A DNA stretch of 64,000 bases from Escherichia coli (GTDB lineage: Bacteria; Pseudomonadota; Gammaproteobacteria; Enterobacterales; Enterobacteriaceae), in the NCBI RefSeq assembly GCF_002854065.1, contig NZ_CP024154.1; one strand, given 5' to 3'. The translations under genes were made by a program, and so were the position numbers. Shown in pieces: positions 19,715 through 34,857 of the stretch (the first letter of the stretch is position 1; each line of letters opens with the position of its first letter). The notes below the pieces were generated by a model. The model was not told where the DNA came from and did not search any database. It saw only the letters and a program-made list of their open reading frames with translations.

Positions 19715-20110
19715 ATGGGGGTAAAGAAAATCGTTATGCTGGCTATTTTAGTCAGCTTTGTGGCGGGATGTGCGCCATTACATCCTTCAAATTGCCATAA
19801 AACTACAGCCCTGGGTAGTTGCAGTTCAGGACGTTGGGATGATCAGGATGAATGGGGGGAGCAGGCACGGGGAATCAGGGATGCAATTAATGCTAAACTT
19901 GATGATCCGCAAAAATGGAAAAGGAAAAAATGCAGGTTGCATATGGAATTCTCCCGGGATGGCACGGCGTTAAAAATATCAACCAGTAATGGCGATAAAG
20001 CCTATTGCGAAGCGATAAAGTCAGCAGCCCATAAAGCTAAATTCCCGGCCTTCAACAATCCGGAAGTTTATAGAGATTTTCAAAAATCCGGCTTTGACAT
20101 GCGCGGTTAG
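19715..20110 (+). CDS. putative lipoprotein (131 aa)
   Basis: Signal peptide with lipobox (LVSFVAGC); SD GAGGAG upstream. Confidence 0.5.
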   Translation: MGVKKIVMLAILVSFVAGCAPLHPSNCHKTTALGSCSSGRWDDQDEWGEQARGIRDAINAKLDDPQKWKRKKCRLHMEFSRDGTALKISTSNGDKAYCEAIKSAAHKAKFPAFNNPEVYRDFQKSGFDMRG

Positions 20111-20497
20111 CTCCACGACATATCTGTAGGGCTAACAGAAGACTGTCAGGTTGGCTGATTACTACACTGGAACCTGAGGTACTTTGCCTCAGGTTATGTT
20201 GACATACTCAAAAATAGATTCTTACATTATCCCGGTAACGGCGTCTTTCATCGGCCTGCCAGTTACCATCAATGGTATTGGTACCCTCATTCTTTCTGTC
20301 TGTGATGTTAATAAGGGCAAAATTAATCAGCATGTCTGGCAGGATCTGGGAATTCATACCAATATCCATAGAAGTGAATCTATTACGAACGTGGGGAACC
20401 CTGGCACCATTTTTTGTGCTGCCCATATTTGTTTTCATGTATAATTCATAATCAAAGCGTTCATCCTGATTTAGCTTAACTGATTAAAATCCGTAGA

Positions 20498-20791
20498 TTA
20501 TGATTTTATCAGTGTTGTGACTTTATTTATTATGGGGAGCTTACCCAGTATTTCGAAATTATCGGGAGAACACTTGTACCATCTGTTTGAGCCTGCAAGT
20601 ATTTCTCTGTCCCATCGTCTGACCCTCTCCCCGTTTCTGAGTATGCATATCATATAGTTTTCGGGCACCATCAGTGTCCGGGCTGCCAGAAGACTATTTT
20701 TAAACGTCAGGGAAGTGATATTGATATCTTCTCCGGAATTTTTACGATAAATAACAGACCATGAGTTTTTTTCCGGGCTACTAATACACAT
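20498..20791 (-). CDS. hypothetical protein (97 aa) in AT-rich spacer
   Basis: ORF only. Confidence 0.3.
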   Translation of the reverse strand: MCISSPEKNSWSVIYRKNSGEDINITSLTFKNSLLAARTLMVPENYMICILRNGERVRRWDREILAGSNRWYKCSPDNFEILGKLPIINKVTTLIKS

Positions 20792-20904
20792 TTATTGTAC
20801 CTCTGGTGATGGATTGAAATCCTGAATCCTCCGCTTACTATGGTGAGCGGAGGAGATTAATAATCGCGTAAAGGTTGTTATTAAAATCAGCCATACAGGT
20901 GTTA

Positions 20905-23208
20905 TCAGAATCTTTTTTTACGACTCTCTTGTTTTCCACCTGATGGTGTCTGAGCGACATTTTTTTTATGGGGCGGGGATGCAGTTAGATCCGGTACAGG
21001 TAACAGCATCTCCAGGGGGAGCAGAGTATTCAGAATCGCCTTCACTGAAGGTATATCTTCAGGACCAGAGTGTTCCTCTTCCGGACGATTCAGTGTGATA
21101 TAACATACCCGGCGTTCTTCCCTGGTTGTGTTATTGATAGTGTGCACAGCCTTTTTCCACAGTTCGTTTGCCCGGGATTCGATATCTGTATCATATTGCG
21201 GAAGCAGATCCAGTGATGTCTGCGCTGTTGCCAACCGGCGCTGGAATGTATCAATGATACGGTAAGGCTCTGTACGGTTTTTACGACGTTTACGGGATGG
21301 TTTTGCTGTCAGTACACCGATGATGCTGCTGACATGCTCCGGTGTGGGGAGCCTGCGCTGCACTGTCCTGGGGACGAGACGGCGGAGACGCTCCAGCCGG
21401 GGGGCTTCAACGGAAATATAGCGGTTGATGACCACCGGATCACTGTCGCAACTTTTCTCGCTGTCCGGAATATACACAGAGGCTGACGGCACCACATCCC
21501 CCTGGAAAACGGTAAAGAACTCACCGGCATTCAGTCTGATCAAATCCTGCACGTCGATTTTGCTTTCCATCTGGATGGTGATCTGGTTACCGTCCACCCA
21601 GGACTCACCCATCACACCATCGTGGCGCTGCAGGCTGCCCATTCTGGCCCGTGCCTCTTCACCGGCGGCATTTTTCACCGTTCTTGCCGTTTTGTCGTCA
21701 CTGACAATGCGTCCGGCGAATTTGGTGCCGGCGTTCTGCATCAGTGTGGCGGTGTTGGTGGCGGAGGTCTGCCCTTCAATTCGCTCCTGATCCTGCGCCG
21801 TCATTATCAGGGAAAACTCCAGTGAACGTACCTGGGTGGCCTCCACAGCAATGCGGTCTGTGTAGTAGGCACCGACTTCATCAAGGATACAGATATAGGG
21901 GAAGCTGCCTTTGTATTTTTTGACTTCCAGGGTCTGTGCATCTGTGCCTTCCAGCCGGTAGCCCAGGTCACGGGCGAGGAGCATGCTCTGCTGGGTGACG
22001 AACATACGACCGAGTGCCGACGTGGTATGAGCCGATGTGTCCAGTGCAGGGATCATCACAATCAGAATGCGGTCGCTGTGAATACTGTCGCGAATATCGA
22101 TGTCGCCGGCATCTGCCGCAAAGACGTCCCCGAAGGTTTCGGCAAAGGTTGTGAACGTTTCCGAGAACTGACCGGAGAGATAAGCATGCTGTTTACGGGG
22201 CTCCTCAGTCCAGGCTGACGGCGTTCTCACCAGTGACATATCGAATCCCGGGACATCCTGCAGGTAGTTTCGCAGTGGTGCGATAGCTTCTTCCGGCCAC
22301 TGGTCATCAAGGCCACGGCAATAGAGTTTTGCCATCCCTTCCAGCGTCATATGTTCCCGTAACATCTGCAGGGACATGGTTTTACCTTCCCGGACGCACC
22401 AGAATTTTGTGCCAAAGACCAGGGCCTTGTTCATGGCTATCGCCCGTGACTGCCATTCTCCCCCCTGAACGTTCTGGGGTAGCATGGACTGCATGGTTTC
22501 GGCGGTGAAGGCTTCTGTGCTGAATGCGAACGGGTTCCAGGTGTTTGACTGTGGGCGGGATTTTTCGCCGCTCTGAATGATTTCACTGCGGGATTTTCCG
22601 CCGTTCATGAAGTTGATGACTTCGATATCATCCTCCCTGCCAAAACGTCGGGAGAGATACCAGATTGTCCTCGTGGTATCGTTCTGTGCCTTTCCGTCAA
22701 CAAAGGTAAAGCCTCTTCCCCAGCAGAGCGGGTTGAGCAGCCAGGCAAAGGTGGTTTCTGTTTTACCGCCACCGGTGGTGGCAAAAAACATGACATGCCG
22801 GGTGAGGTCATCCATGCTCAGCCAGAGCTCACGACCGATATCGTTGATACGGCGGTAACCGACATAAAAAATCCCCCGGGCGGGGAATGTTTCATCCGCT
22901 TCATACTGAAACAGGGTGGGCCAGAAGCTGAAGAGGCTTCTCCTGACCTTTCTGTCCTGGGAGGGGTCATCAAGGCTGAGTGTCATGGGCATACGCAGGG
23001 GGCATCGCCAGCGTTGCAGCATGAATATCACGGAGGTGACCAGGGTGAACAGCAGGCAGACAGGAAGGGCCAGTGGCCATATCAGCGCCGTAATGATACT
23101 GCCGGCCAGACACAGACCAGTGATGTTCAGGTTATGCAGTGCATTCCACAACGGGTTTCCCCAGGCCGTGCGGTGTATGAGGTCAGGATTAACGTGGTGC
23201 TGGCTCAT
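20905..23208 (-). CDS. trbC: TrbC-like conjugation ATPase (putative type IV coupling protein) with N-terminal transmembrane segments
   Basis: 767-aa ORF; Walker A FATTGGGKTETTF; position downstream of trbB. Confidence 0.75.
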   Translation of the reverse strand: MSQHHVNPDLIHRTAWGNPLWNALHNLNITGLCLAGSIITALIWPLALPVCLLFTLVTSVIFMLQRWRCPLRMPMTLSLDDPSQDRKVRRSLFSFWPTLFQYEADETFPARGIFYVGYRRINDIGRELWLSMDDLTRHVMFFATTGGGKTETTFAWLLNPLCWGRGFTFVDGKAQNDTTRTIWYLSRRFGREDDIEVINFMNGGKSRSEIIQSGEKSRPQSNTWNPFAFSTEAFTAETMQSMLPQNVQGGEWQSRAIAMNKALVFGTKFWCVREGKTMSLQMLREHMTLEGMAKLYCRGLDDQWPEEAIAPLRNYLQDVPGFDMSLVRTPSAWTEEPRKQHAYLSGQFSETFTTFAETFGDVFAADAGDIDIRDSIHSDRILIVMIPALDTSAHTTSALGRMFVTQQSMLLARDLGYRLEGTDAQTLEVKKYKGSFPYICILDEVGAYYTDRIAVEATQVRSLEFSLIMTAQDQERIEGQTSATNTATLMQNAGTKFAGRIVSDDKTARTVKNAAGEEARARMGSLQRHDGVMGESWVDGNQITIQMESKIDVQDLIRLNAGEFFTVFQGDVVPSASVYIPDSEKSCDSDPVVINRYISVEAPRLERLRRLVPRTVQRRLPTPEHVSSIIGVLTAKPSRKRRKNRTEPYRIIDTFQRRLATAQTSLDLLPQYDTDIESRANELWKKAVHTINNTTREERRVCYITLNRPEEEHSGPEDIPSVKAILNTLLPLEMLLPVPDLTASPPHKKNVAQTPSGGKQESRKKRF

Positions 23209-24313
23209 TGTGATACTCCTCGCTATCTGTTGCTTTCAGGAAGAGGCGAACGGAAGTGGCGTCTTTCAGGATGCCGGACGGCAGGTGCCAGCCGGTATCT
23301 GATAACACCCAGGGGGTTCCGCCAAAACCGAACTGGCGGAAAGCCTGGTTATTGACATCGATGGCAGCACGTGCGGCGGTCAGACACTGTCCATCCTGTG
23401 CGGCCGGTGCATCGCCGGTGGGGGCCATACCACTGTCAGCGGAATACAGCTGATGCCATCCGGTCGCCCGTTTTTGTGAGTCCGGTTCACACAGCAGCGG
23501 AGCAGTCCGCTTTGTACTGGACTCCCCGCCAATCACGGAGACCGGATAAATCACCACGCTGAATTCCCGGGCCAGTTGCTTAAGCGCGGGTTCCAGCAGA
23601 CGGCAGTTGATGCATGCGGGGTCAAGGAAGGCGTACAGCGTGCGTTCATGACCAGTGGACAGGTTAATGGTGAACATCCCCCGGTCTGCGTTGCGTTTAA
23701 GTACTGTGGCCAGATTACGGCGGGCCTCAGCGGCCTGAACGTGTTGTTCTTCCGTCACTGCCGTCGGGGCGGGGGCAGAAGAAGGTTCCTGCTGTGTGGG
23801 AGCCGGGCGGGCCGGGATGCTGTTAACATGATGTTCCGTATGTGGGCGTGGTGTCTCTGTGTCGGTTACTGGTTCAGCTCTCCATTCCTGAGATGTAGGG
23901 TAAGCCAGCGTGGAAGGGGACTCTGCCTTCATCCAGTGGTAACCTGCAACTGTCGCCGGCAGAGCAATTCCGGCGATAAAGCCACACATCAGTGTCCGCC
24001 AGAAGCCATTTTTCCGGGAGGGATGTTTTCCTTTTCCGGCATATTCGGCATCCAGGCAGGCATCAATCGCTGAGAGCATTCTGCCGATGTGATGTCCGGG
24101 ACGTTCTGCATCAACGGTATCAACAAGCACCGTTTCAGTTATTTCGCGAAAAGGGGAACTGAAGGACAGGTGCATCAGCCTGTTATTACGGTTAATCAGT
24201 GCGCCCAGTTCTGTTACCGGCAGGATGGCAATCACCTCCCGATTACCGTCAGGGTACAGGGCGGTCAGGGACAGGTGTTTATTATTCAGTGTTGCAGTGT
24301 AGTGGATGGTCAT
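23189..24313 (-). CDS. trbB: TrbB-like thioredoxin-fold disulfide isomerase
   Basis: CxxC motif (DPACINCRLLEP) in C-terminal half; Pro/Thr-rich linker; trbA-trbB-trbC order. Confidence 0.7.
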   Translation of the reverse strand: MTIHYTATLNNKHLSLTALYPDGNREVIAILPVTELGALINRNNRLMHLSFSSPFREITETVLVDTVDAERPGHHIGRMLSAIDACLDAEYAGKGKHPSRKNGFWRTLMCGFIAGIALPATVAGYHWMKAESPSTLAYPTSQEWRAEPVTDTETPRPHTEHHVNSIPARPAPTQQEPSSAPAPTAVTEEQHVQAAEARRNLATVLKRNADRGMFTINLSTGHERTLYAFLDPACINCRLLEPALKQLAREFSVVIYPVSVIGGESSTKRTAPLLCEPDSQKRATGWHQLYSADSGMAPTGDAPAAQDGQCLTAARAAIDVNNQAFRQFGFGGTPWVLSDTGWHLPSGILKDATSVRLFLKATDSEEYHNEPAPR

Positions 24314-25635
24314 TGTTCTTTTTCCTTGTCGGCGGGATGCTGTTTTTCGGTGGTTTCGGTGGTTTCGGTGGTTTCGGTGGTTTCGGTGGTTTCGGTGGTT
24401 TCGGTGGTTTCGGTGGTTTCACCAGTGTCAGTGTCTTCGTCGTTATCATGGCGGCGGGGTATCACGTCATCCGTGAGTGACCAGCGGGTCCTGATCTGAC
24501 GTTTACGATCGCGATCTGGCTGAGGTTCGTCCCATATCAGGCCCAGCCCCAGCATGTCCCGTCGAAGCCCTTCAATGGCCTCTTCCACACAGGGTTCCGG
24601 GCAGGGGAGGCCGAGACGGCTGGCTTCATTTTCTGCCCGGGCAACGGCCACCACGCCGGCCCCTTCGATGAAGCCTTTTGTGGTGTTTGCCCGGTGAAGG
24701 GCATAGAAGAGCGTCCGGTCAACGCCCTTGAGCCACAGCCAGTTGGGGGGCGTCAGGCGCAAATCATGTGCGTAAAGCCAGACAAGACCGCTGCGAACGT
24801 AACGGTGCTGCCTGAGCCACTGTTGTGCGTCTTCTGTTTTTATGACCCGGATAAAGGCGTTTCTGGCCAGTGAATACACTGGCGTGCTGAAACGCCCCTG
24901 GTCCCGCTTGCTTTTGAGTCTGCAGGAGAGGTTGAGGTTATTCATCAGGGAAACAGCCGATTTCCGGTCCCCAAGGAAGAACTGCAGGCCAAAGACGGCA
25001 AAGAGTGCTTTTTCATGTGGAGCCATGTCTTTCCAGGTGGTCAGAGGCTGGCCCAGTTGCGCCATAAAGCACTGGCGCGTGGCCGCAACATCGAGCTGCA
25101 TGTTGCGGATAAGGTTGTTCTGCTCCACAAAGGCTTCGGGGGTTAGAGCGACACGGCGCTCGGGACGTTTTTGTCCGTGGAAGAGTCTGTTGCTGTCTCC
25201 GTCAGCCAGAACGGGGGCGATCGCCGGTGACAGTGATGAAAACAGATGTGGCAGCGTGTGGATATTCAGTGGTCTGCGGGTGAAGCGGGGCTGGGCCGGA
25301 TGCTGAAACCACATCCACAGAAAGCCGATCGTCATGGGAAGCAGAATCAGCCAGAGGATCCCCACGGTCTGTGACATGACATCCAGCCACTGGCTGAAAG
25401 TGATCGTTGCAGCGTTGTTGGCGGTGTTGGCCAGCAGGTTATAACGGGGGGCGGCAAAATGGTGAAAAGGCCCCCAGTCAGTCATCCCCCACATTGTGTG
25501 CAGGATCAGGCAGGTGGCAAAGACGATGTCGGGTAAAAAGAGCCAGATGAGAAGCGCAAAGAGCAGACATATGGTGCCAACGATATACCATATGTTCATC
25601 GGGTCTTCTGTTGTGGGGGAGTGTTGGTAAGACAC
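24310..25635 (-). CDS. trbA: TrbA-like membrane protein with C-terminal (TET)n repeat
   Basis: 441-aa ORF with N-terminal TM segments; identity assigned by position upstream of trbB; 9-bp in-frame tandem repeat at 24349-24420. Confidence 0.6.
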   Translation of the reverse strand: MSYQHSPTTEDPMNIWYIVGTICLLFALLIWLFLPDIVFATCLILHTMWGMTDWGPFHHFAAPRYNLLANTANNAATITFSQWLDVMSQTVGILWLILLPMTIGFLWMWFQHPAQPRFTRRPLNIHTLPHLFSSLSPAIAPVLADGDSNRLFHGQKRPERRVALTPEAFVEQNNLIRNMQLDVAATRQCFMAQLGQPLTTWKDMAPHEKALFAVFGLQFFLGDRKSAVSLMNNLNLSCRLKSKRDQGRFSTPVYSLARNAFIRVIKTEDAQQWLRQHRYVRSGLVWLYAHDLRLTPPNWLWLKGVDRTLFYALHRANTTKGFIEGAGVVAVARAENEASRLGLPCPEPCVEEAIEGLRRDMLGLGLIWDEPQPDRDRKRQIRTRWSLTDDVIPRRHDNDEDTDTGETTETTETTETTETTETTETTETTEKQHPADKEKEQ

Positions 25636-25779
25636 GAGGATTCCTCCATCGATAAATAGATAAATTTCGGGATGAGGCTGAGTGGAATTAATGCGAACAA
25701 TCGCCGGTAATGACCGGGCAGGGCTGAATTCAGCAGGGCATTTTCACAGGAACAGCAGAAGGTGGTGAGAGACAGGCAC

Positions 25780-25810
25780 AAAAAAGCCGACTGGTGAGGC
25801 CGGCTTTTTT
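25780..25810. terminator. bidirectional rho-independent terminator-like hairpin (copy 1 of a duplicated element)
   Basis: AAAAAAGCCG-ACTGGTGAG-GCCGGCTTTTTT. Confidence 0.5.
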
Positions 25811-26083
25811 GCGATCCCAGGGAGAGTGGGTGGCTCTGGCCCGGAGGAAGTCTCTTTTCAACTAACGTTACCAGAATATCGTTATATTCACCTGATCGCA
25901 ATCTGTTCGTTACAGTCTATTGTTCCGGGAGTAGCGATATCGCCTGAAACAAGTATAATCAGCAAGTTAGCCTTGTCTGGAGACTTACCTTCGCATCAAT
26001 CCATTTGCCGTATTTTCGTAAAATTCAACAGGAAATATTCAACGGGAGTGAGAGAACTGCTGTCCGGGGAGGAGGTACAGACG

Positions 26084-26117
26084 CAAAAAAACCGACTGGT
26101 GAGGCCGGTTTTTTTGC
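26084..26117. terminator. bidirectional terminator-like hairpin (copy 2)
   Basis: AAAAAAACCG-ACTGGTGAG-GCCGGTTTTTTT, nearly identical to copy 1. Confidence 0.5.
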
Positions 26118-26431
26118 GATTCCGGATCGAAGTTGGTAGCCCTGACCGGAAGATAACTGCCTATAACTGACTATGAAATAATACGGCTGAAATAATATTT
26201 CTGCAAGCACAGTATAAGTATATACTCGGTGTGTCAGCTTTGAGGCACGTTCTTTCCGGCATATCGTTCACCGGGATGAACAGGTTGCAAGTCCTGGCCA
26301 AAACATCAGGTGGTGCTGGTTTTGGTGCTCTGGCCGGAGAAGAACTGTCTATAACTGACACTATAGAAAACGTGGCGACAGGCAATGTAAGGGCAAACCA
26401 CGGTGTTCTTTCTCCATTGATGGAGAAGCGG

Positions 26432-26527
26432 ATGATTAACCTGTTAATCATCGTTCTCAGGGCGGTTGTTGCTGTGGCTAACGCAGTGATAGCTCTCCTG
26501 GAACTGATCCGGGAACTGGTTGACTGA
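26432..26527 (+). CDS. small hydrophobic peptide (31 aa), candidate type I toxin-like membrane peptide
   Basis: SD GGAGAA 5 nt upstream of ATG 26432; MINLLIIVLRAVVAVANAVIALLELIRELVD; hairpin terminator downstream. Confidence 0.35.
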   Translation: MINLLIIVLRAVVAVANAVIALLELIRELVD

Positions 26528-26546
26528 TAATCCCGGAAACGTACTT

Positions 26547-26577
26547 AAGGGCAGAGGGTCACCGCCTTCTGCCCTTT
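26547..26577. terminator. bidirectional hairpin between convergent small ORFs
   Basis: GGGCAGA-N12-TCTGCCC followed by T-run. Confidence 0.5.
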
Positions 26578-26589
26578 AACAAAATATGC

Positions 26590-26766
26590 TCAGGTTAAAA
26601 ATCGAAAACCTTCCTGCACTTCCTGTGCCTGTTCCCGTGAGTCAAACATGAGCCGGCTTTTACCCGGAACTCCCCAGGAAATATATTCTACATCCACCCA
26701 CCATTTTCCGTATTCTTCATACGGTCCGGATATCACTTTAGTGACAAATGCATCAACCAGGTTCAT
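26590..26766 (-). CDS. hypothetical small protein (58 aa) downstream of the nuclease gene
   Basis: SD AAAGGTG upstream of ATG; MNLVDAFVTKVISGPYEEYGKWWVDVEY...; below the ORF-track size cutoff. Confidence 0.35.
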   Translation of the reverse strand: MNLVDAFVTKVISGPYEEYGKWWVDVEYISWGVPGKSRLMFDSREQAQEVQEGFRFLT

Positions 26767-26915
26767 TTTTACACCTTTCTGTTATTCTGCTTATTACGAC
26801 CAGCAGACAGCAAATATTAAAAATAACGCGGCGGTAAAAATGGCAATTTTTTCCATGCTGTATTTTTGCCATTTATTTTCTTTGAAATGGTTTTTTTCTT
26901 CATATCAGCAAATAA

Positions 26916-27383
26916 TTATTTCTTATTCTGTTTTCTCCAGGTCCATGGTGGTACCGGATTTTTATCTGCCCATAATCCCCGCTTCAGGGCGCGGGCATCA
27001 CGCTGGAGCGGCGGGAGAGTATAGTCATTATTGTAGTCCGGGTACACCCAGGCAGCGCCGTTACGGACCTGCCAGCGATTTGCTTCTGTGCCGTCAGCGG
27101 TATAGACCCGGCCGAGAATACGGCCATACCTGTCTGTCTGCGCGTATTGCACGGTTACGGGCTTTCCGGCCACCAGGTCCTTCAGCTGAGTGGCTGACCA
27201 GCGTCCAAAGGGCTGTTTCTTTTCCGGTGCATCAATATTAGCCAGACGGACCCTGACAGGCTTTTTGTCCTGTAATATTTCCAGCGTATCACCATCAAGA
27301 ACGCGGATGACGTGCCCCTGAATCTGTGCGGCACAGAGAGAAGCGGAAAAAATAATGGTGAGTGAAAAGATATATTTTATCAT
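26916..27383 (-). CDS. secreted thermonuclease (staphylococcal nuclease-like) family protein
   Basis: Signal peptide; SNase-like motifs (VIRVLDGDTLEI, RLANIDAPE, YGRILGRVY). Confidence 0.8.
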   Translation of the reverse strand: MIKYIFSLTIIFSASLCAAQIQGHVIRVLDGDTLEILQDKKPVRVRLANIDAPEKKQPFGRWSATQLKDLVAGKPVTVQYAQTDRYGRILGRVYTADGTEANRWQVRNGAAWVYPDYNNDYTLPPLQRDARALKRGLWADKNPVPPWTWRKQNKK

Positions 27384-27484
27384 TTCATCGTCTCCTTTTT
27401 ATTTATGAAAACAGGTGCAATTAATATTGCGAAATAATAACGTTCAGGTGTTTTTTTTTGGCAGTGTGATACTTCACGCAGGGC

Positions 27485-28165
27485 ATGAATTCCAGTACGC
27501 TGATATCCGTGATGATACGGCAACAGATATCCGGTGACGGTATGCAGGAACATATTGATTATCAGATTGAGAAATATCAGTTCAGGGCCAGGAATGAGTC
27601 ACCGCGACTGATGCGCCAGTGGGAAGATGTCATGCGTGAATGCCGTGATACCGGAGCAGGAGCCAGGGAGCGGCTGCGGATTGCCTTACTTAATGTTGAT
27701 TATGTGACCAGTTTTGAACTGCCGTTTCGTCTGCTGTTAACCCGGACACCGCAGATGATTGACAGCGTGCGGCGGGAATGGCAGCTCAGCCAGAAAAAAG
27801 TCGTATTCAATGAGCGGCAGCGGGGATGTGTATACAGTCTGCAGAATGACTTATCCGGCGTGCCGGATAGCTTCAGTTACAGTCTTGCGACGCGAATACG
27901 GCGGGTGGACAGCTATGGCATGACGACGCGTTGTTTCACTGATATAGCCGGGCAGGTTAAAGCCCCGACAGCACGGCTGAAACTGGCGCTGGAAAGCGGG
28001 TTAATTGTCACCGCGCTGGATGGTCTGTTCTGGCTTGGTATTCAACGTATTGCCGCAGATGTGCAGCGGCTGCGTCAGTCCGGAATGACAATCATCACCC
28101 GGGATGTTGAGGTCTCAGACTCGCTGACCGGAACCACACGGGTTGTTTCCGGGTACAGCCTTTGA
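27485..28165 (+). CDS. hypothetical protein (up to 226 aa), possible DNA-binding protein
   Basis: ORF; several candidate starts; C-terminal region resembles a winged-helix fold by composition only. Confidence 0.4.
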   Translation: MNSSTLISVMIRQQISGDGMQEHIDYQIEKYQFRARNESPRLMRQWEDVMRECRDTGAGARERLRIALLNVDYVTSFELPFRLLLTRTPQMIDSVRREWQLSQKKVVFNERQRGCVYSLQNDLSGVPDSFSYSLATRIRRVDSYGMTTRCFTDIAGQVKAPTARLKLALESGLIVTALDGLFWLGIQRIAADVQRLRQSGMTIITRDVEVSDSLTGTTRVVSGYSL

Positions 28166-28366
28166 TTTATGCAACAAAGTATCGCAGCGTCGAATATGAG
28201 CTATGGCCAGATTTTTGTTAATCGTGGTTGTTGCAACATGTAAGGCGAATGACCACACTATTCTGGCACGCTCGTAATCATGCTGAAATTCTGCTTCCTG
28301 TCCTGCCGTGATGAGTTCCGACCAGGACATACGGCGAAGTGTATGTCTGTCAGTAATATCCGTCAT
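28115..28366 (-). CDS. hypothetical small protein (83 aa)
   Basis: ORF whose start overlaps the stop of the upstream gene (ATGA); last gene of a three-gene minus-strand cluster. Confidence 0.4.
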   Translation of the reverse strand: MTDITDRHTLRRMSWSELITAGQEAEFQHDYERARIVWSFALHVATTTINKNLAIAHIRRCDTLLHKSKAVPGNNPCGSGQRV

Positions 28367-28578
28367 GAGCTCTCAGCCTCCTCCTTCGTATTTCCGTCAG
28401 AAACACAAACGCCCCGCAGAGAAAATTCGCCAACATTCTCCTTTTTAATGGCGCGCAATGCATCGCGGCAGGCCCGTTCGGTATGAAAGGCCTGGCTGTG
28501 CACCGCCAGTGTGGGCTGACGGGCATCACCGGAAGAGACATTAAAGGGCGATGAAAGCCAGAAAATCAGTAGCCACAT
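28363..28578 (-). CDS. hypothetical small protein with N-terminal hydrophobic segment (71 aa)
   Basis: ORF only. Confidence 0.4.
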   Translation of the reverse strand: MWLLIFWLSSPFNVSSGDARQPTLAVHSQAFHTERACRDALRAIKKENVGEFSLRGVCVSDGNTKEEAESS

Positions 28579-28581
28579 GCG

Positions 28582-28965
28582 TCACACCTCGTCCTTTTTA
28601 TGCGGGTATCTGGACAGAATATTGAGCGCCTGTAATGGCGCTTCATGCATTTCACGGATACAACGGGCATCGGTGATATTTTCCCGGTAATGTGTGGTTT
28701 CCAGCATCATATGATGCATATGGAGCATCCGGGCCAGGGCTGCGCGGAGTTCTTCAATATGTTGTTCATGGGAATGCTGGCGGGGCTGTATCCGGCAGAG
28801 AGGGATAACCTCCACATCATCCGGGTGCGCGCGAAGCCACGCGTCAGTGACTGCAATGTCGTCAGTGTAAAACCATGTGCCGGATGTCCCGTTGGCCAGA
28901 AAACGCATTTTCCAGGCTTCTGGGGTGGCGGTTGTGTTGTTATCTTTCATGGTGCCACCACTCAT
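28582..28965 (-). CDS. hypothetical protein (about 122-127 aa), His-rich
   Basis: ORF only; first gene of the three-gene cluster. Confidence 0.45.
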   Translation of the reverse strand: MSGGTMKDNNTTATPEAWKMRFLANGTSGTWFYTDDIAVTDAWLRAHPDDVEVIPLCRIQPRQHSHEQHIEELRAALARMLHMHHMMLETTHYRENITDARCIREMHEAPLQALNILSRYPHKKDEV

Positions 28966-29240
28966 TCAACAGGCTTAATGCTGTCCAGGCGCAGTCTGCT
29001 CAGACTGCCGTGGCTGCCACAGCGGCGTCCAGTGCTTTTGCTGTAGCACTCCTGCCCCCTGATACACCATGCCGTTGGCGTTTCGTAGAGGCTGACACGT
29101 CGGGTTTTATCTTTAATGATGAGAAGCCCGGTGTGAGTTTTTGTCTTTTTCATCGGTGGGGTACAAACGCAGAGATTTTGTTGTCATCAGTTTTTGCCTG
29201 CAGAGGCCTGAAAAGACAGCGTTTTCAGGCCCTGTTCAGG

Positions 29241-29483
29241 TTAGTGAATATTCTTGCCTGGCCTTTCGGCAATATCAATCCCCTGAAGTTGCATGGATAT
29301 CCCATGCCCATTGAGCATCTGGCTGTCCATGGAATTGATACCGCATGTCATCATCAGGTTGTAACAAAGCGTACTCAGCATGGTGAGCGCCTCTTCTGAG
29401 GATTTACAATGTGTATTCATAAGGGCCAGAAACTGCTCAACAACATCCGGGTTAATGCTGGTACTGTGTATTTCATCCTTCAT
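29241..29483 (-). CDS. hypothetical small protein (80 aa)
   Basis: SD AAGGA 6 nt upstream of ATG 29483. Confidence 0.4.
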   Translation of the reverse strand: MKDEIHSTSINPDVVEQFLALMNTHCKSSEEALTMLSTLCYNLMMTCGINSMDSQMLNGHGISMQLQGIDIAERPGKNIH

Positions 29484-29664
29484 GATGTGTCCTTGTTTTT
29501 TATTATTTTGCATTTCAGAAAATAACACGATGCCTGCAGCCCGGAAAACAGATGTGTGCACACGTAGTCACTTTCCGGCTTTATTTCTGTCCCTGACACA
29601 AAATACGTGGTGGCATGAAAAGGATTGTGGCGGACAGGAAAACGATTAGAATAGCGGCGGGCGC

Positions 29665-29958
29665 TTGAGGCTGTATGCCGAAAGCGTTTTGTGGACGGCA
29701 TGTAGCAGAAAGCCCCAGGCGATTTTTTTATCAATCAACCCAGGGCCCACTGTAATGCCTCAACAACATTATAGTAGCCCGATGACGGCCGAAAGGCAAT
29801 GGAGGGGCTGCGATGCCACAACGAACGTTTTTAATGATGTTAATCGTCGTCTGTGTGACGATACTGTGTTTTGTCTGGATGGTGAGGGATTCGCTTTGCG
29901 GATTTCGTATCGAGCAGGGAAATACGGTGCTTGTGGCAACGTTAGCCTACGAAGTTAA
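29665..29958 (+). CDS. pndC: pndC (mok-like) overlapping leader reading frame of the pnd locus
   Basis: Reading frame that overlaps and ends inside pndA in a different frame, as in hok/mok loci. Confidence 0.5.
   Translation: MRLYAESVLWTACSRKPQAIFLSINPGPTVMPQQHYSSPMTAERQWRGCDATTNVFNDVNRRLCDDTVFCLDGEGFALRISYRAGKYGACGNVSLRS
29690..29780 (-). ncRNA. pndB: expected position of PndB (Sok-like) antisense RNA; not delimited from sequence
   Basis: Placed by analogy to hok/sok architecture only. Confidence 0.25.
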
Positions 29959-29965
29959 ACGTTAA
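29813..29965 (+). CDS. pndA: PndA, Hok-family type I toxin (50 aa)
   Basis: MPQRTFLMMLIVVCVTILCFVWMVRDSLCGFRIEQGNTVLVATLAYEVKR; hairpin terminator at about 29975-30005. Confidence 0.85.
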   Translation: MPQRTFLMMLIVVCVTILCFVWMVRDSLCGFRIEQGNTVLVATLAYEVKR

Positions 29966-30102
29966 CGGGCAACACGGCGGCAGGACATCTGCCGCCGGAT
30001 TGTTGCGAAGGCTGACCTCAATGCGCCTTGTTTGTCTTTTTTACCGGACGACTGCTGGTTGCTGCTGTCCGGCAGCTATTATTTTTTCCGTCCTGTGCGT
30101 CA

Positions 30103-31689
30103 TCAATTATGACAGTCGCTCTCATTTGGTTGTCTCTGGTTAGATGTATTATTAGATATTTTCGGGGTAATTCGATAAAAGTTATCCACTTCAGCACCAG
30201 ACTGAATGATATATGCAATAAGATCTAAACGATGAATCTCGTATCGTGTACGTAACTCCATCATTTCACGCCATGCTAAAATCCTTGATGTTTTCAGTTC
30301 AGCCTCTATAAGTTTCCATGTGTTTGTTGAGATGGCATGTTCTTCCAGCTGACGTAACGAGAACCTATCACTAATGACCAACCATCCCCATCCTCGAGTA
30401 TGTGCCCATTTGCGACCTGCATTACTTTTTATTCTCGTGAGACTCAAGGTCATTCGGTCTGTTGGCTTCACTTCCATAAGTAGGCACCGACCATCAACTG
30501 TCGCAATGAGTAAATCTGGATAGTATTTTTTTGATTTGTTTTTAAAACAATATGGAATAGAAAATGGTTGTTCTTGATAGAAAAGAACCTGATCGCAACA
30601 TTCTAATAGATTCATTATTTTAAACTCAAGCCCTGATTCGTACTGGACTGTACGACCTAATTTTTGAGAGTAAAAGAATCCAGATATGTCAGTATCATTA
30701 ACCGCTCTCTGTGAACATAGCTGTTCTACGGGGGGAGGAGGTGCGATATATTTTGGCCAATGTGTATTGTCTAGCCATTTACTGAATATGAACTCAACTC
30801 TTTCTTTCTTGATTCGGGCTCTTTCCTGAGCGTGAGCGTGTGCTAATTCTGCTCTTCGTTCACGTAACTTCTGCTTTTGTAATTGTGATATTAATGAGAG
30901 CGAATTTTTTATTTCATCTCGTCTTGCTTTAGGAATGCCTGCGGCAAAAATGATGAATTTGGCGGCTAACTCAGAGGATGTAACGAAATCCCGATGAACA
31001 ATACGATAAATCCATACTGCTATATCATATGGTGAATTACCTATTGAGTTAATAAGGGCTTTAAGGCAAGCTCCAGGTGTCCCTTCATAGCGAGATTTAG
31101 CAGCTAGTAAGCCAAGGGCTCGTTCCTGAAGTTGTCTTACCCTTTCACGGGAAATTCCTAATTTGACGGCAATATCTGCCAGAGAATGAGGTGAATCATC
31201 TGTGCCGAGTCGCATTAGAAGAATATATTGATGTCGTTTATTAGATAAACTTTCGATAGCAGAATGAATTAGCATAATGACATCATGTTCATCGGCTATA
31301 TAATCTTTAAAATCTGTATTGGGTTGGCAGAGGGGGAGTGGGGTATTTTGTTTAAAACTATTCTTTTGTATTTCAACTTTATCATGAGCAATTGTTTTTG
31401 CAGTGCTCAATGATATTAAATTATTGATGATACTATTGTGTTCTTGGCGAGGAATCTTGTTGAAGTAATTGCTGAGGTCATTCACCGTGTTTATATCGTT
31501 GAACTCAAGAAACTCAGAAGGAAGCAGGCGTTTGATTGCTCCACGTATTCCCCCGGACGATCGTTGATGTGTTTGAGTAAGTTTTTTTAGCGAGACGCCC
31601 TCCGCTATGGATACGAGAAGACGCTGTAACTCTTCAGTATTCCATGGAGTACCATGTCGTGCTGGAAAATTGCTGCGGGATTCAGACAT
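30103..31689 (-). CDS. 528-aa protein with N-terminal HTH domains and C-terminal PD-(D/E)XK-like nuclease motif, in AT-rich DNA
   Basis: Sigma-70 region-4-like HTH (SLADIAVKLGISRERVRQLQERALGLL); Myb/GcrA-like N-terminus (PWNTEELQRL); C-terminal YYPD...LLMEVKP. Confidence 0.55.
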   Translation of the reverse strand: MSESRSNFPARHGTPWNTEELQRLLVSIAEGVSLKKLTQTHQRSSGGIRGAIKRLLPSEFLEFNDINTVNDLSNYFNKIPRQEHNSIINNLISLSTAKTIAHDKVEIQKNSFKQNTPLPLCQPNTDFKDYIADEHDVIMLIHSAIESLSNKRHQYILLMRLGTDDSPHSLADIAVKLGISRERVRQLQERALGLLAAKSRYEGTPGACLKALINSIGNSPYDIAVWIYRIVHRDFVTSSELAAKFIIFAAGIPKARRDEIKNSLSLISQLQKQKLRERRAELAHAHAQERARIKKERVEFIFSKWLDNTHWPKYIAPPPPVEQLCSQRAVNDTDISGFFYSQKLGRTVQYESGLEFKIMNLLECCDQVLFYQEQPFSIPYCFKNKSKKYYPDLLIATVDGRCLLMEVKPTDRMTLSLTRIKSNAGRKWAHTRGWGWLVISDRFSLRQLEEHAISTNTWKLIEAELKTSRILAWREMMELRTRYEIHRLDLIAYIIQSGAEVDNFYRITPKISNNTSNQRQPNESDCHN

Positions 31690-31962
31690 GATTTTATCTT
31701 TATGTTTTCTAGGTACTGCCTTGAGTGTGTGGATATGATAATTATTTATAATGATATTGTTATCTTTTATAGATAACTGATATGCAGAATTGTATTGATT
31801 TTGTCTACAGTGGGCAAGACAGTGCTAAGAATTTGTGGGGAAAACATAGAGACTCCATGCGGCGTCCTGAGATAGACGGCAGACAGGCATTCTGCCTGAA
31901 AAGAAAAAGCCGGTTCAGAGAAAACCGGCTGACGGATTATCGTCTAACAGTTGATAGCTACC

Positions 31963-32610
31963 TCAAAATACTTCTGCAACAGGAACACCGGCAACTTTTT
32001 CCCACTCTTTAACCCGATACCGGATCATCTGTGGGAAACGTTCCTTGTACTCATATCCACGTGCAGCCATGGTGTGCATGGTGTTGGCCAGCGTCCTTGA
32101 TGAGATGCCGGAGATTTCCAGTGGGATCATCGGCAGACTCACATATGTAGTGTGGATTTCCAGCTTGCCGTCTTCAGCAACCGTGCGGGTAAAGTTGTGA
32201 ATATCCAGACCAATCACATCCATCACATTGTTCGGATAAATGCGCACATACAGCATGGTGCCGTTTTTAATGTCGATCCCGAAATAACAACTCTTCGAGA
32301 ATGACAGTTGCTCATAATCGCTGGTTGGAGCAAAGTGACAGCTTTCTTTTATCTGCTGAACAACCTGCTGGACTTTCTTTTTTTTCGCTCTGGTTCTCAG
32401 ATATAGCCAGAGTAATGGGAGAATTATTAATGCCCAGCATCCATATGCAAAAATAAAATCCATTGTTTGAGATAAGGCTGAATCATGAACAATTAGTGTT
32501 CCGAAAAAAGCATAAAATAATAAGCATGGTATGCCAAATATGAAATACGCATTGCGAACAAGGTAATAATATGGCCACCAGGAAGGATATCTGCTTTTTG
32601 TTGTACTCAT
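31963..32610 (-). CDS. putative entry-exclusion inner-membrane protein (ExcA-like by position)
   Basis: 215-aa ORF with N-terminal TM segments directly downstream of the traY-like gene; AT-rich. Confidence 0.5.
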   Translation of the reverse strand: MSTTKSRYPSWWPYYYLVRNAYFIFGIPCLLFYAFFGTLIVHDSALSQTMDFIFAYGCWALIILPLLWLYLRTRAKKKKVQQVVQQIKESCHFAPTSDYEQLSFSKSCYFGIDIKNGTMLYVRIYPNNVMDVIGLDIHNFTRTVAEDGKLEIHTTYVSLPMIPLEISGISSRTLANTMHTMAARGYEYKERFPQMIRYRVKEWEKVAGVPVAEVF

Positions 32611-32697
32611 AATAAACCCCCATATTCACCTGAATATATTTTAATCTCTTCAGGTGAATATGGCAATAGTGTTTTATTGGTTTTTCGATATTTTTAT

Positions 32698-34857
32698 TTA
32701 TTGTTTTATTCCGTCTTTATCATCTCCATTAACATTTTTCAGTTTTTCTTCACGAACGCCAGGTGTTCTGCGCATATTGGTATTACCTCCGGCAATAATA
32801 TCTTTGACTGAAGAAACCATATTCCCCAGCATATTAACGCCGTCACGTCCGCCCAGAAAATTAATTACATGGTCAGGCAGATAAGCCTGAAGCGCAAAAA
32901 CGGCTGCAACCAGTGTGGTACAGACTCGGGCATAAATCAGCAAAAATCCAGCGATGCTGAATAACCCCGTAAGGGAGTCCGCCTGCACATTAACCAGAGC
33001 CGCGCCAAACAACGCATTCAGAATGGTGCCGCCGGCCACGATGGCGACCGATGCAAAAAAGAATCCGAACACCATCAGCAGCGGTCTGATCATGCTGTCT
33101 ATCAGGTAGATGTAACCGTAAGCAGCCCGGCTTCCCCTGTCCTGGCTTGTTCCCAGATGGGTGGCGGCCCACAGGGGGCCAGCAGCACATCCAATCAGTA
33201 CGCTGACTATCCAGTTGCCGATGCCGGTCATCCAGAAGATAAACGGGATAAACGGCAGGTAAATGGATAACGAAAAGCCGGCACAGAACAGCAAAAACAG
33301 CAGGAAGTAGAGTGGTGGTGCGGATGCTTCCAGAAAAGCCTTTGCGGCGTCAGATAATCCGCTGACGGCATTGACCAGTCGACCAAAAACGGAGTTGCTG
33401 CCGGCTGTGGAAAGTACCCTGACGGTGGTATAACCCGCCCATATGCTTTCAGTAATACCCATAGTGTAATCACCGATATTTTTCATTTTTATCAGTGGAT
33501 TTAGTTGGTCCGAGGATGTTCCTGTTCCAGATAAGGATGTCGCAATTTTGTCTGCAAAATTTTCACCCGACCATACTTTCATTATTATGCTTTTAGGTTC
33601 AGCGGCTTCCGCTGTTCTGTATTCAGTTGATGAAGTGTTTGTTCCCAGTGCAGGAGTATATGGTGAATTCTGCAGCTGTGCCTGGTAAGCCCCCTTGACT
33701 TCCTTCAGGAATTCCGTATCCCCGGCTTCGCCCAGTGACGAGACGCCACTCACGGTAGGGGCGCGGTTGGCCAGGTCTTCCAGTCGCTGGTTGGCGGTGG
33801 CAAAGGTCTGGTACCAGGCACCCAGGGCAACCCAGCCGTAGGTGGTCAGGTAGGATTTCAGCTGCTCCCTGCGCTCAGTTTCTGCGTTATCTGCCGGCAA
33901 CGCCTTCTGCACCGTTTCTTCATACCGGTTGGCTGCCTTCTGAATACGGCTTTCAATATCCGGCAGGTTGCCGTTACCCGTGTCGCGCCGGGTCCGGTAT
34001 GCCGACACAAATTCCTGCGCCGCGCTGTCCAGGTCACGGAGCATGGTATCCATGGCGGAGCGTTGTGCCGTCAGAACCCCCTGATATTCCGTTTCAATGA
34101 AGGGATTGAAAAAATGGGCCAGCGCGGACTGCTTGTTACTGCCGTTTCCTTTCACGGAGAGACTCACACTCCCGCAGGTGGCGCTGCCATTTGAGACGGT
34201 GACGGTATATCTGCCATTCTCTGTCCGTGAGGATTCGCTCATGGGCGGCGTTGATGAACGTGCGGTACGGTTAAAGTCATCGAGGCCCGTATTCATGGCG
34301 TGTTTGCACAGTTCCATCTCCAGAATTCCCCGTGCTGCCGTGCGGGTGGAGACATGTACTGGCTGTACGGTCATTGAATAGTCTTCAGCAATGTTTTCTG
34401 CCGCTGTCTGAACCATGATATTGGCGGAACCGATGCCCATGATGGATGCGCCCCACAGCATGACCAGTTGCGCCAGACTCCAGCCGGAAGCGGTGGGCAC
34501 AATCATCAAAAATCCACTCACGACACTGAGTATGCCGACGACGTCCCGTCCGTTGTTAAAGACACTGCCCTGGTGTCCCGTGCGGACAGCATGACGGATA
34601 CCAATAAACAGAAACCAGACTATCCCCATCGTGGCGATAATTGCGTTAAACACCATGAACAGGTTGCCAATGATGGTGTTGCTGCTGGCTGTCAGGGGAT
34701 TTGTGACCACATCACCAAAAATGGTGACCAGTGCCTGGCGCGACAGGTCATCCGGATTGGTGGCGGCACTCACAATGTCCTGATAGGTGACGAAAGCCTG
34801 TGCAGGTACGGCAGCCAGCGCCAGACCTGCACTCAGTGCTCTGGGTATGATTTTCAC
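32698..34857 (-). CDS. traY: TraY-like polytopic inner-membrane conjugation protein (DotA-like)
   Basis: 719 aa with signal peptide and multiple TM segments; gene order. Confidence 0.65.
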   Translation of the reverse strand: MKIIPRALSAGLALAAVPAQAFVTYQDIVSAATNPDDLSRQALVTIFGDVVTNPLTASSNTIIGNLFMVFNAIIATMGIVWFLFIGIRHAVRTGHQGSVFNNGRDVVGILSVVSGFLMIVPTASGWSLAQLVMLWGASIMGIGSANIMVQTAAENIAEDYSMTVQPVHVSTRTAARGILEMELCKHAMNTGLDDFNRTARSSTPPMSESSRTENGRYTVTVSNGSATCGSVSLSVKGNGSNKQSALAHFFNPFIETEYQGVLTAQRSAMDTMLRDLDSAAQEFVSAYRTRRDTGNGNLPDIESRIQKAANRYEETVQKALPADNAETERREQLKSYLTTYGWVALGAWYQTFATANQRLEDLANRAPTVSGVSSLGEAGDTEFLKEVKGAYQAQLQNSPYTPALGTNTSSTEYRTAEAAEPKSIIMKVWSGENFADKIATSLSGTGTSSDQLNPLIKMKNIGDYTMGITESIWAGYTTVRVLSTAGSNSVFGRLVNAVSGLSDAAKAFLEASAPPLYFLLFLLFCAGFSLSIYLPFIPFIFWMTGIGNWIVSVLIGCAAGPLWAATHLGTSQDRGSRAAYGYIYLIDSMIRPLLMVFGFFFASVAIVAGGTILNALFGAALVNVQADSLTGLFSIAGFLLIYARVCTTLVAAVFALQAYLPDHVINFLGGRDGVNMLGNMVSSVKDIIAGGNTNMRRTPGVREEKLKNVNGDDKDGIKQ

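Follow-up and report, generated by a model that had tools for sequence, protein, structure and literature searches.

The dql family of DinQ-like toxin genes, with its subgroups dqlA and dqlB, was defined in 2016, and the switch in the untranslated 5' region (5'UTR) of its chromosomal relative dinQ was established by selective 2'-hydroxyl acylation analysed by primer extension (SHAPE) and in vitro translation (PMC5066626). Experiments published in 2025 showed that the DqlB peptide of plasmid pOXA-48 is toxic, that agrB neutralises it and that cells are killed upon plasmid loss (PMC12365149), and that the corresponding locus of the IncX3 plasmid pOXA-484 is toxic and plasmid-stabilising (PMC12317039); this work showed DqlB to be a major stability determinant of carbapenemase plasmids. 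The dqlB gene is present in 83.2% of IncB/O/K/Z and in 67.4% of IncI1 plasmids (PMC12365149). Here we analyse a 64,000-nucleotide (nt) stretch of Escherichia coli DNA (contig NZ_CP024154.1, referred to below as the window), in which a reading of the letters alone had singled out a 31-codon open reading frame (ORF) at position 26432 as a possible TisB-like type I toxin gene. We are confident that this locus is a plasmid-borne DqlB/AgrB-like type I toxin–antitoxin addiction module of the DinQ family.

Like the DqlB-AgrB systems of pOXA-48 (IncL) and pOXA-484 (IncX3), the window locus encodes a 31-aa peptide recognised by the NCBIfam model NF041473, has an mRNA homologous to theirs from the 5'UTR to the terminator, possesses a divergent upstream small RNA (sRNA) antisense to about 32–35 nt of the 5'UTR and is carried by a conjugative plasmid (PMC12365149, PMC12317039). 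It differs from them in having another sRNA/target specificity allele, in its location beside trbA in an IncI-type transfer region and in the presence of two sRNA genes instead of one; the pOXA-48-type sRNA is, moreover, too diverged to be found by the Rfam AgrB model at E < 0.1, unlike the proximal sRNA of the window. With dinQ-agrAB of E. coli K-12 (PMC3567139, PMC5066626) the locus shares two divergent upstream AgrB-type sRNAs, one with a good and one with a poor match to the target, a homologous mRNA (S1, SL2, Shine–Dalgarno (SD) hairpin and start-codon hairpin) and the peptide motif IALLELIR. However, dinQ is chromosomal, LexA-controlled and encodes 27 aa from a GUG start, whereas the window locus is plasmid-borne and lacks a LexA box. 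The cognate sRNA is the distal one (agrB) in K-12 and the proximal one in the window, where the second sRNA is explained by a recent toxin deletion.

The original prediction was therefore a correct recognition of a system that is already known, since the family has been described since 2016 and is curated in NCBIfam, the gene is annotated on identical RefSeq plasmids and its homologues were studied experimentally in 2025. As a check of method, it means that a reading of the raw sequence recognised a 31-codon type I toxin of the kind that annotation often misses.

The toxin gene and its product

The frame runs on the plus strand from ATG 26432 to the TGA at 26525–26527 (dqlB, 26432–26527 with the stop codon included), and its translation, MINLLIIVLRAVVAVANAVIALLELIRELVD, is exactly the 31-residue sequence that had been quoted. 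The GGAGAA motif described as well spaced lies at 26422–26427, with its GGAG (26422–26425) ending 6 nt 5' of the ATG. The homology search against type I toxin families that had been proposed as a check led to DqlB: the peptide matched NF041473, a curated equivalog hidden Markov model, at 63.7 bits (cutoff 35, E = 1e-17) over positions 1–31 of 31. The DinQ model NF041472 gave 22.2 bits, below its cutoff of 30, with residues 18–29 alone aligned, which does not place the peptide in DinQ proper; no NCBIfam model besides these two was found. A RefSeq record identical to the window across the 1401-nt locus carries the same sequence as dqlB (WP_001363141.1), with the product name 'DinQ-like type I toxin DqlB'. 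All 13 residues that are invariant in an alignment of 12 homologues are present in the window peptide, as is the DqlB signature M1 I2 ... A18 I20 A21 L23 E24 L25 I26 R27, and the identity to the experimentally tested homologues amounts to 81% (pOXA-48) and 77% (pOXA-484) at the amino acid level. Sequence comparison assigns the peptide, over its full length, to DqlB, a family of DinQ-like type I toxins. When the window and the entire 85-kb reference plasmid were searched by tblastn with DqlB and DinQ, this ORF alone was found and no second dql gene.

The single-helix character ascribed to the peptide agrees with the AlphaFold model built on a 12-sequence alignment, where residues 2–30 form one helix (predicted local distance difference test, pLDDT, 96.6). 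The grand average of hydropathy (GRAVY) is 1.89 and the best 19-residue Kyte–Doolittle window reaches 2.67; R10 is placed within the hydrophobic stretch and the C-terminus is charged. In these properties the peptide does resemble TisB (GRAVY 1.89 vs 1.71, hydrophobic moment 0.38 vs 0.35, similar size), and a system of the TisB/IstR family, as the earlier comparison suggested, would also have a separate divergent sRNA acting on a long 5'UTR, an inert primary and an active 5'-processed transcript and a hydrophobic single-helix product, features common to tisB-istR1, zorO-orzO and the locus considered here. The families of both the peptides and the RNAs are nevertheless different, and TisB is LexA-regulated and chromosomal. 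The Pfam search of the 31 residues returned no family at E ≤ 1, TisB_toxin included, which puts the peptide outside the TisB family; NCBIfam offered DqlB and DinQ only, no IstR match was obtained in Rfam at E ≤ 1 over 20000–34000, and there is no LexA box. Membership of the TisB/IstR family is refuted at the sequence level and has next to no chance of being correct, convergence being all that is left of the likeness. The earlier assignment holds in that the full-length NF041473 match places the product in a type I toxin family, and fails in its reference to TisB. The terminator halves of the sRNAs of the window gave weak matches to OrzO-P (30.8 and 28.7 bits against a gathering threshold (GA) of 60).

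The extent of the gene was assessed on a homologue set of thirteen loci (from IncF, IncI1, IncI-gamma, IncX1/3/4, IncL/M, IncI2 and IncFIB plasmids) together with K-12 dinQ; where loci have to be told apart they are designated by L numbers. The feature had been given the coordinates 26231–26527, which delimit a 98-aa ORF starting with GTG that contains the peptide as its C-terminus. If this ORF, or a 35-aa form starting from ATG 26420, were the true gene, the 31 residues would be merely the end of a longer protein, and the 85 codons that are open upstream of ATG 26432 in the window, as well as the longer 'hypothetical proteins' given at the locus in some GenBank records, could be read in this way. 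The frame 5' of the conserved ATG, however, stays open beyond 80 codons solely in the window and in L005, a close relative; in the other 11 loci it closes within 4–24 codons, and insertions and deletions in the 5'UTR shift it. The upstream 67 codons have no Pfam family at E ≤ 1 and no NCBIfam model aligned to them, and they overlap the conserved RNA helices and the antisense target, while the SD element AUGGAG includes ATG 26420, which in K-12 and IncX3 is not in frame. Within the 31 codons the pairwise differences at positions 1, 2 and 3 are distributed as 329:53:738, and 605 of the codon differences are synonymous against 334 non-synonymous. Because the upstream frame is not conserved and the differences are biased towards the third position, the comparison identifies the 31-aa ORF as the unit under protein-level selection. 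The 98-aa ORF was rejected as not conserved, a longer gene is highly improbable, and the gene coordinates have to be corrected to 26432–26527. Dql peptides are often annotated with a spurious N-terminal extension (PMC5066626).

The dqlB mRNA

The window can be aligned with K-12 dinQ and 12 plasmid homologues from the +1 position to the terminator. The predicted dqlB mRNA of about 350 nt (26233–26580, plus strand) would start at G 26233, placed by homology to the mapped +1 of dinQ (GTYAGC start), and end after the terminator. Its full-length fold has a minimum free energy (MFE) of -141.8 kcal/mol (z = -5.9); in it nt 1–28 pair with the antisense-target region, which corresponds to the S1 stem of dinQ, and the start codon sits in another conserved hairpin. 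In the alignment of 14 sequences 81.8% of the cells are paired, compared with 39–49% in slid controls, and the covariation score is 0.229 against at most 0.118 in these controls, with 33 pairs changed on both sides, the structure that was tested having been derived from one of the 14 aligned sequences. Most of the compensatory changes are found in S1, SL2 and the terminator.

The layout described for dinQ (elements 1–4, S1, SL2, anti-SD/SD hairpin, sigma-70 -10 box and terminator; PMC5066626) is found in the window as well. Element 1, CGUUCUUUCCGGC (26248–26260, plus strand), pairs with element 2, GGAGAAGAAC, to form the long stem S1, as is supported by the fold, the covariation (changes on both sides in 10 of the 19 pairs of this helix, helix 2) and the published model (PMC5066626). 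Element 2 lies within the antisense target GCUCUGGCCGGAGAAGAACUGUCUAUAACUGAC (26327–26359, plus strand), which was recognised as a direct repeat of the sRNA gene, by the duplex that it forms with the sRNA and by intermolecular covariation. Element 3, the anti-SD sequence GUUCUUUCUCC (26405–26415), together with the SD hairpin UUCUCCA-UUGA-UGGAGAA (26410–26427) makes up a feature at 26405–26427 on the plus strand that sequesters the GGAG at 26422–26425; this hairpin (helix 10) is 80.6% paired across the homologues. Elements 1, 2 and 3 all differ from those of dinQ (UUUUCACUCUGGC, GGAGUGAGA and UCUCACUCC) with their mutual complementarity kept. The helix between elements 2 and 3, which frees the SD sequence, can be forced in the full-length mRNA at a cost of 12.0 kcal/mol and, once the first 52 nt are removed, of only 2.7 kcal/mol, comparable to the values of 8.8 and 3.1 kcal/mol obtained for the full-length and 5'-truncated K-12 dinQ control.

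The hairpin terminator reported just downstream of the ORF was confirmed as a conserved 13-bp hairpin at 26547–26576 (plus strand; inverted repeat 26547–26558 / 26565–26576) followed by UUUAAC; across the 14 homologues this helix (helix 16) shows 95% pairing, and 5 of its 13 pairs have undergone compensatory change. A scan by terminator pattern did not call it because its U-run is short, and flagged instead the plus-strand sides of the two bidirectional sRNA terminators.

The cognate antitoxin RNA

The antisense sRNA expected for a type I toxin is encoded on the opposite strand, divergently from the toxin. Rfam AgrB (RF02891) matches 26083–26170 on the minus strand at 47.7 bits (GA 40) over positions 1–84 of 84, and the gene of this proximal AgrB-like sRNA, the cognate antitoxin, extends over 26083–26171 on the minus strand, 262 nt upstream of the toxin ORF. 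The RNA contains an internal hairpin and a bidirectional A-tract/hairpin/U-tract terminator (fold z = -4.5). A putative promoter (26178–26206, minus strand) can be read from the sequence, with the -35 box TTGCAG at 26206→26201, a 17-nt spacer and the -10 box TATTAT at 26183→26178; it is back-to-back with the dqlB promoter and would place the sRNA start near 26171.

Through its 5' 32 nt the proximal sRNA is antisense to 26327–26359, a target that ends 73 nt before the ATG, and 30 of the 32 nt are paired in the duplex (-48.6 kcal/mol). The recognition sequences vary over 11 loci, and the sRNA and its target change together: in the variable segment cognate combinations have on average 21.1 of 22 pairs and non-cognate ones 16.7 of 22, with Watson–Crick switches at 12 or more positions. 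The duplex energies are -41 to -61 kcal/mol for cognate pairs versus about -22 to -40 kcal/mol for unrelated ones, with cross-reaction between close alleles. Such covariation between the two molecules argues strongly for a functional pairing, and the locus possesses the trans-encoded AgrB-type sRNA complementary to the 5'UTR that is expected of a DqlB system. According to the sequence, the antitoxin gene is divergent from the toxin ORF, upstream of it and without overlap, its product acting on the 5'UTR. In this respect the locus also illustrates how modules of this type evolve, through co-varying sRNA/target specificity alleles.

Four other dqlB loci (L008, L011, L013 and L014, of IncL/M, IncFIC and IncFIB plasmids) showed no Rfam AgrB match at E < 0.1. 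A functional agrB is present in pOXA-48 (PMC12365149). The Rfam AgrB model misses diverged members of the sRNA family, the pOXA-48 type included.

Promoter and the LexA question

The putative -10 box of dqlB, TATACT at 26221–26226 (plus strand), is equivalent to that of dinQ; the -35 region is weak, and no LexA box overlaps the promoter. In K-12 the LexA box CTGTATGATTATCCAG is located at the dinQ -10, and the window has CAGTATAAGTATATACTC there instead. The earlier failure to find a canonical LexA box upstream was borne out, as 26100–26300 contains no CTGT-N8-ACAG site with at most one mismatch, and matches with two mismatches occur at chance density. A LexA box overlapping the promoter, which characterises DinQ proper, is absent from the window. 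As the dinQ box has no counterpart at the dqlB promoter, expression of dqlB is probably constitutive and its control post-transcriptional, as for an addiction module, and the absence of the box fits a role in plasmid addiction rather than in the SOS response.

The homology to LexA-regulated dinQ (PMC5066626) could nevertheless suggest an SOS-inducible stress toxin, similar to dinQ or tisB, that serves damage-induced dormancy rather than addiction. A CTG-N10-CAG sequence (CTGGCCAAAACATCAG) is indeed present at 26294–26309, and the equivalent site of the IncI1 plasmid pTF2 was proposed to be a LexA box with a heterology index (HI) of 11.64 (PMC12211044). This sequence is, however, situated about 60 nt inside the transcript and is accounted for by the RNA structure, because it falls within the co-varying SL2 stem. 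No DqlB was found in the proteome of pTF2 (PMC12211044), and the homologues act as addiction modules (PMC12365149, PMC12317039). Together with the replacement of the dinQ box, these data make SOS control of the window locus quite unlikely.

Mode of action and its alternatives

Family membership, the homology to dinQ over the whole mRNA, the co-varying structure, the sRNA gene with its co-varying complementarity and the absence of a LexA box allow a mode of action to be proposed for the addiction module. The sigma-70 promoter with the -10 box at 26221–26226 would give rise to a stable mRNA of about 350 nt, which when freshly made would be translationally inert, with its 5' end paired to 26327–26359 in S1 and the GGAG locked in the anti-SD hairpin. 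Removal of the 5' end would free element 2 to capture the anti-SD sequence, so that the SD becomes open and translation yields the 31-aa peptide; inserted in the inner membrane as one helix, it would depolarise or kill the cell. The divergent and presumably short-lived sRNA (26171→26083) would bind the element-2 region by its 5' 32 nt and keep the SD closed, the pairing probably triggering RNase III cleavage. After plasmid loss the synthesis of the sRNA would stop and the toxin mRNA would persist, leading to post-segregational killing. Processing, the involvement of RNase III and the relative half-lives of the RNAs are modelled here on the homologues, and the toxicity, the rescue by the sRNA and the killing upon plasmid loss would be those of the pOXA-48 and pOXA-484 loci.

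The same general strategy is used by hok/sok (pnd), which has in common with dqlB a type I addiction function on plasmids, a stable folded inert mRNA activated by processing, an unstable antisense RNA and a small peptide toxin of the membrane; the same window has a pnd copy 3.3 kb from dqlB. The two systems have no sequence relationship. Hok is 50 aa long and requires the leader ORF mok, Sok overlaps its mRNA in cis and activation occurs by 3' trimming, unlike dqlB, whose sRNA is separately encoded and acts on the 5'UTR and whose activation would be by 5' trimming.

Several points weigh against the proposed reading. The -35 of dqlB is poor, and the transcription start was placed by homology alone. 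The proximal sRNA–target duplex is imperfect, with 2 mismatches and 4 G:U pairs in 32 nt, in comparison with the near-perfect duplex of the L005 allele (-59.6 kcal/mol). In ViennaRNA the MFE structure of the 5'-truncated mRNA keeps the SD hairpin shut and the probability of an unpaired SD barely changes; in these models the open state of the SD is near-isoenergetic and not the predicted one. Neither MFE nor partition-function calculations showed a clear opening of the SD on 5' truncation or its closing on sRNA binding, and the K-12 dinQ positive control behaved alike, which marks the result as a limit of the method and not as evidence against the switch model. Among these calculations only the constrained-fold energies support the opening step, which leans on the SHAPE and translation work with dinQ (PMC5066626). 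The evidence on the window allele itself is comparative, its activity being taken from the homologues. Finally, a sister module described below has lost its toxin and the related locus L015 has decayed, which means that such loci are dispensable.

These last observations raise the question of whether the locus is a decaying relic, in which the ORF and sRNAs are kept by descent and the toxin is silent or non-toxic and plays no part in plasmid maintenance. The adjacent module lost its toxin by a 420-bp deletion, L015 is without promoter and 5'UTR and has a shortened ORF, the mismatches in the proximal duplex could be a sign of decay, and the presence of hok/sok, yacAB and two partition systems on the same plasmid makes for redundancy. 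The module under study (module 2) is, on the other hand, intact in its -10 box, S1, SD hairpin, ATG, 13 invariant residues, terminator and sRNA with promoter and terminator; at least 25 listed records carry it with 100% identity from end to end, and at ≥99% it is matched in 168. Where the toxin was lost the antitoxin stayed behind, as the distal sRNA, whereas module 2 retains both partners. We consider a relic unlikely and retain the interpretation of the locus as an addiction module.

The second sRNA and a deleted sister module

Most plasmid loci have one sRNA per dqlB, and the window has two. The distal AgrB-like sRNA gene (25778–25866, minus strand; putative promoter with -10 TATTCT at 25878→25873 and -35 TTGCGA at 25901→25896) matches the Rfam AgrB model at 25778–25865 with 37.4 bits, below the GA of 40, yet over the full model (1–84). 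It folds with the same three-part layout as the proximal sRNA and is 86% identical to the region that holds the sRNA of L003 (52.8 bits). Its match to the target of its own plasmid is weak (-33.8 kcal/mol, 16 of 22 pairs), while with the targets of L003 and the IncI1-type L004 it forms duplexes of cognate grade (-59.7 and -56.7 kcal/mol, 22 of 22 pairs each). On the reference plasmid no other dqlB and no target elsewhere for this sRNA were found. The IncI1-type target region occurs at ≥99% identity in 505 PLSDB records.

The origin of the distal sRNA is apparent from related plasmids. Two complete tandem modules are present in pMbl488 (IncK2/Z) and in a Shigella dysenteriae plasmid, the second dqlB being annotated in L018 and L019, and the window matches the S. 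dysenteriae tandem plasmid apart from a clean deletion of 420 bp. Positions 25500–26004 of the window correspond to 631–1135 of L019 (99.8% identity) and positions 26001–26800 to 1556–2355 (100%), with the deletion junction at 26001–26004 in a CCAT microhomology. Through the deletion module 1 lost its ORF, its terminator and the greater part of its 5'UTR; it keeps the promoter, an mRNA segment of about 39 nt and the sRNA that was its antitoxin. The remnant of the module-1 dqlB (25954–26004, plus strand), recognised by identity to L019, consists of the -10 box TATAAT (25954–25959), the +1 G at 25966 and the first ~39 nt of the 5'UTR. Junction-spanning searches found about 130 PLSDB plasmids with the deleted form and about 75–90 with the intact tandem, counts that are approximate because the search tool joins nearby pieces. 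Recombination between L003-type and L005-type loci was also considered as the source of the two-sRNA layout and was dropped once the tandem loci L018 and L019 were found, in favour of the simpler tandem pair with a 420-bp deletion.

Between the two modules of the tandem relatives L018 and L019 (dqlB at 1303–1398 and 1987–2082 in each), nucleotide identity is 100% for the dqlB ORFs, 71% for the 5'UTRs and about 75% for the sRNA genes, which suggests gene conversion of the ORF while the sRNA/target specificities stay distinct. In L015 (860–1103; IncK2/Z plasmid p5312.29) a fusion at the repeat that they share joins the sRNA gene to the dqlB 5'UTR, the promoter and most of the 5'UTR being deleted, and the annotated DqlB is a shortened 27-aa form that is probably inactive. 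A toxin–antitoxin module is expected to decay by losing its toxin first and keeping an orphan antitoxin, and the locus provides an example of this, as well as of tandem modules with identical ORFs and different recognition sequences.

The orphan antitoxin is the only part of the locus that we did not find described in the papers cited here. It is conceivable, if rather doubtful on the sequence data, that the distal sRNA is expressed and acts as an anti-addiction device instead of being a dead relic; the deletion is too recent (flanks 99.8–100% identical to L019) for sequence conservation to show selection on it. If it were active, its perfectly matched targets would be the dqlB 5'UTRs of IncI1-type plasmids and of tandem-module IncK/IncI-gamma plasmids, and a host carrying it would be protected from DqlB killing when a competing plasmid is lost, which would favour displacement of the rival. 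Activity against IncI1-type DqlB would bear on the competition of IncI-complex resistance plasmids that share poultry and human hosts. More generally, 'second' AgrB-like sRNAs, AgrA of K-12 among them, could be cross-specific antitoxins left after the loss of their toxins.

The replicon and neighbouring features

The window belongs to a conjugative IncK2/Z plasmid, a member of the IncI complex. A stretch of 1.4 kb surrounding the ORF is 100% identical in many Escherichia, Shigella and Klebsiella plasmids, one of which is pBOKZ_020007 (IncK2/Z, MOBP relaxase, mating pair formation system MPF_I), and the ORF is conserved across thousands of plasmids; several GenBank records of the locus carry a 'hypothetical protein' only. 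The gene order in pBOKZ_020007 is trbC-trbB-trbA (minus strand), dqlB, a 58-aa ORF and a thermonuclease gene. The locus had been described as an AT-rich intergenic region, and it is indeed richer in AT than its flanks, though mildly so (GC content 0.44–0.49 versus 0.50–0.63); it is not an empty intergenic region, being filled by the toxin 5'UTR and the two sRNA genes.

The 58-aa ORF (26590–26766, minus strand; WP_001054907.1) is conserved, convergent with dqlB and travels with it in the IncI-complex loci L005, L009, L015 and L018; in the tandem relatives the duplicated unit includes its 3' end. Pfam gave no match for it or for a 114-aa ORF spanning the sRNA region. The reference plasmid also has yacAB and two partition systems, and the window contains a second, unrelated type I toxin–antitoxin system, with a Hok/PndA ORF of 50 aa at 29813–29965 (plus strand) and an Rfam sok match at 29659–29815 (124.7 bits). 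The 3' end of trbA contains, at 24345–24420, a perfect 9-nt tandem repeat in 8.4 copies (TTTCGGTGG), which encodes an acidic (TET)n tail (…TETTETTETTE…).

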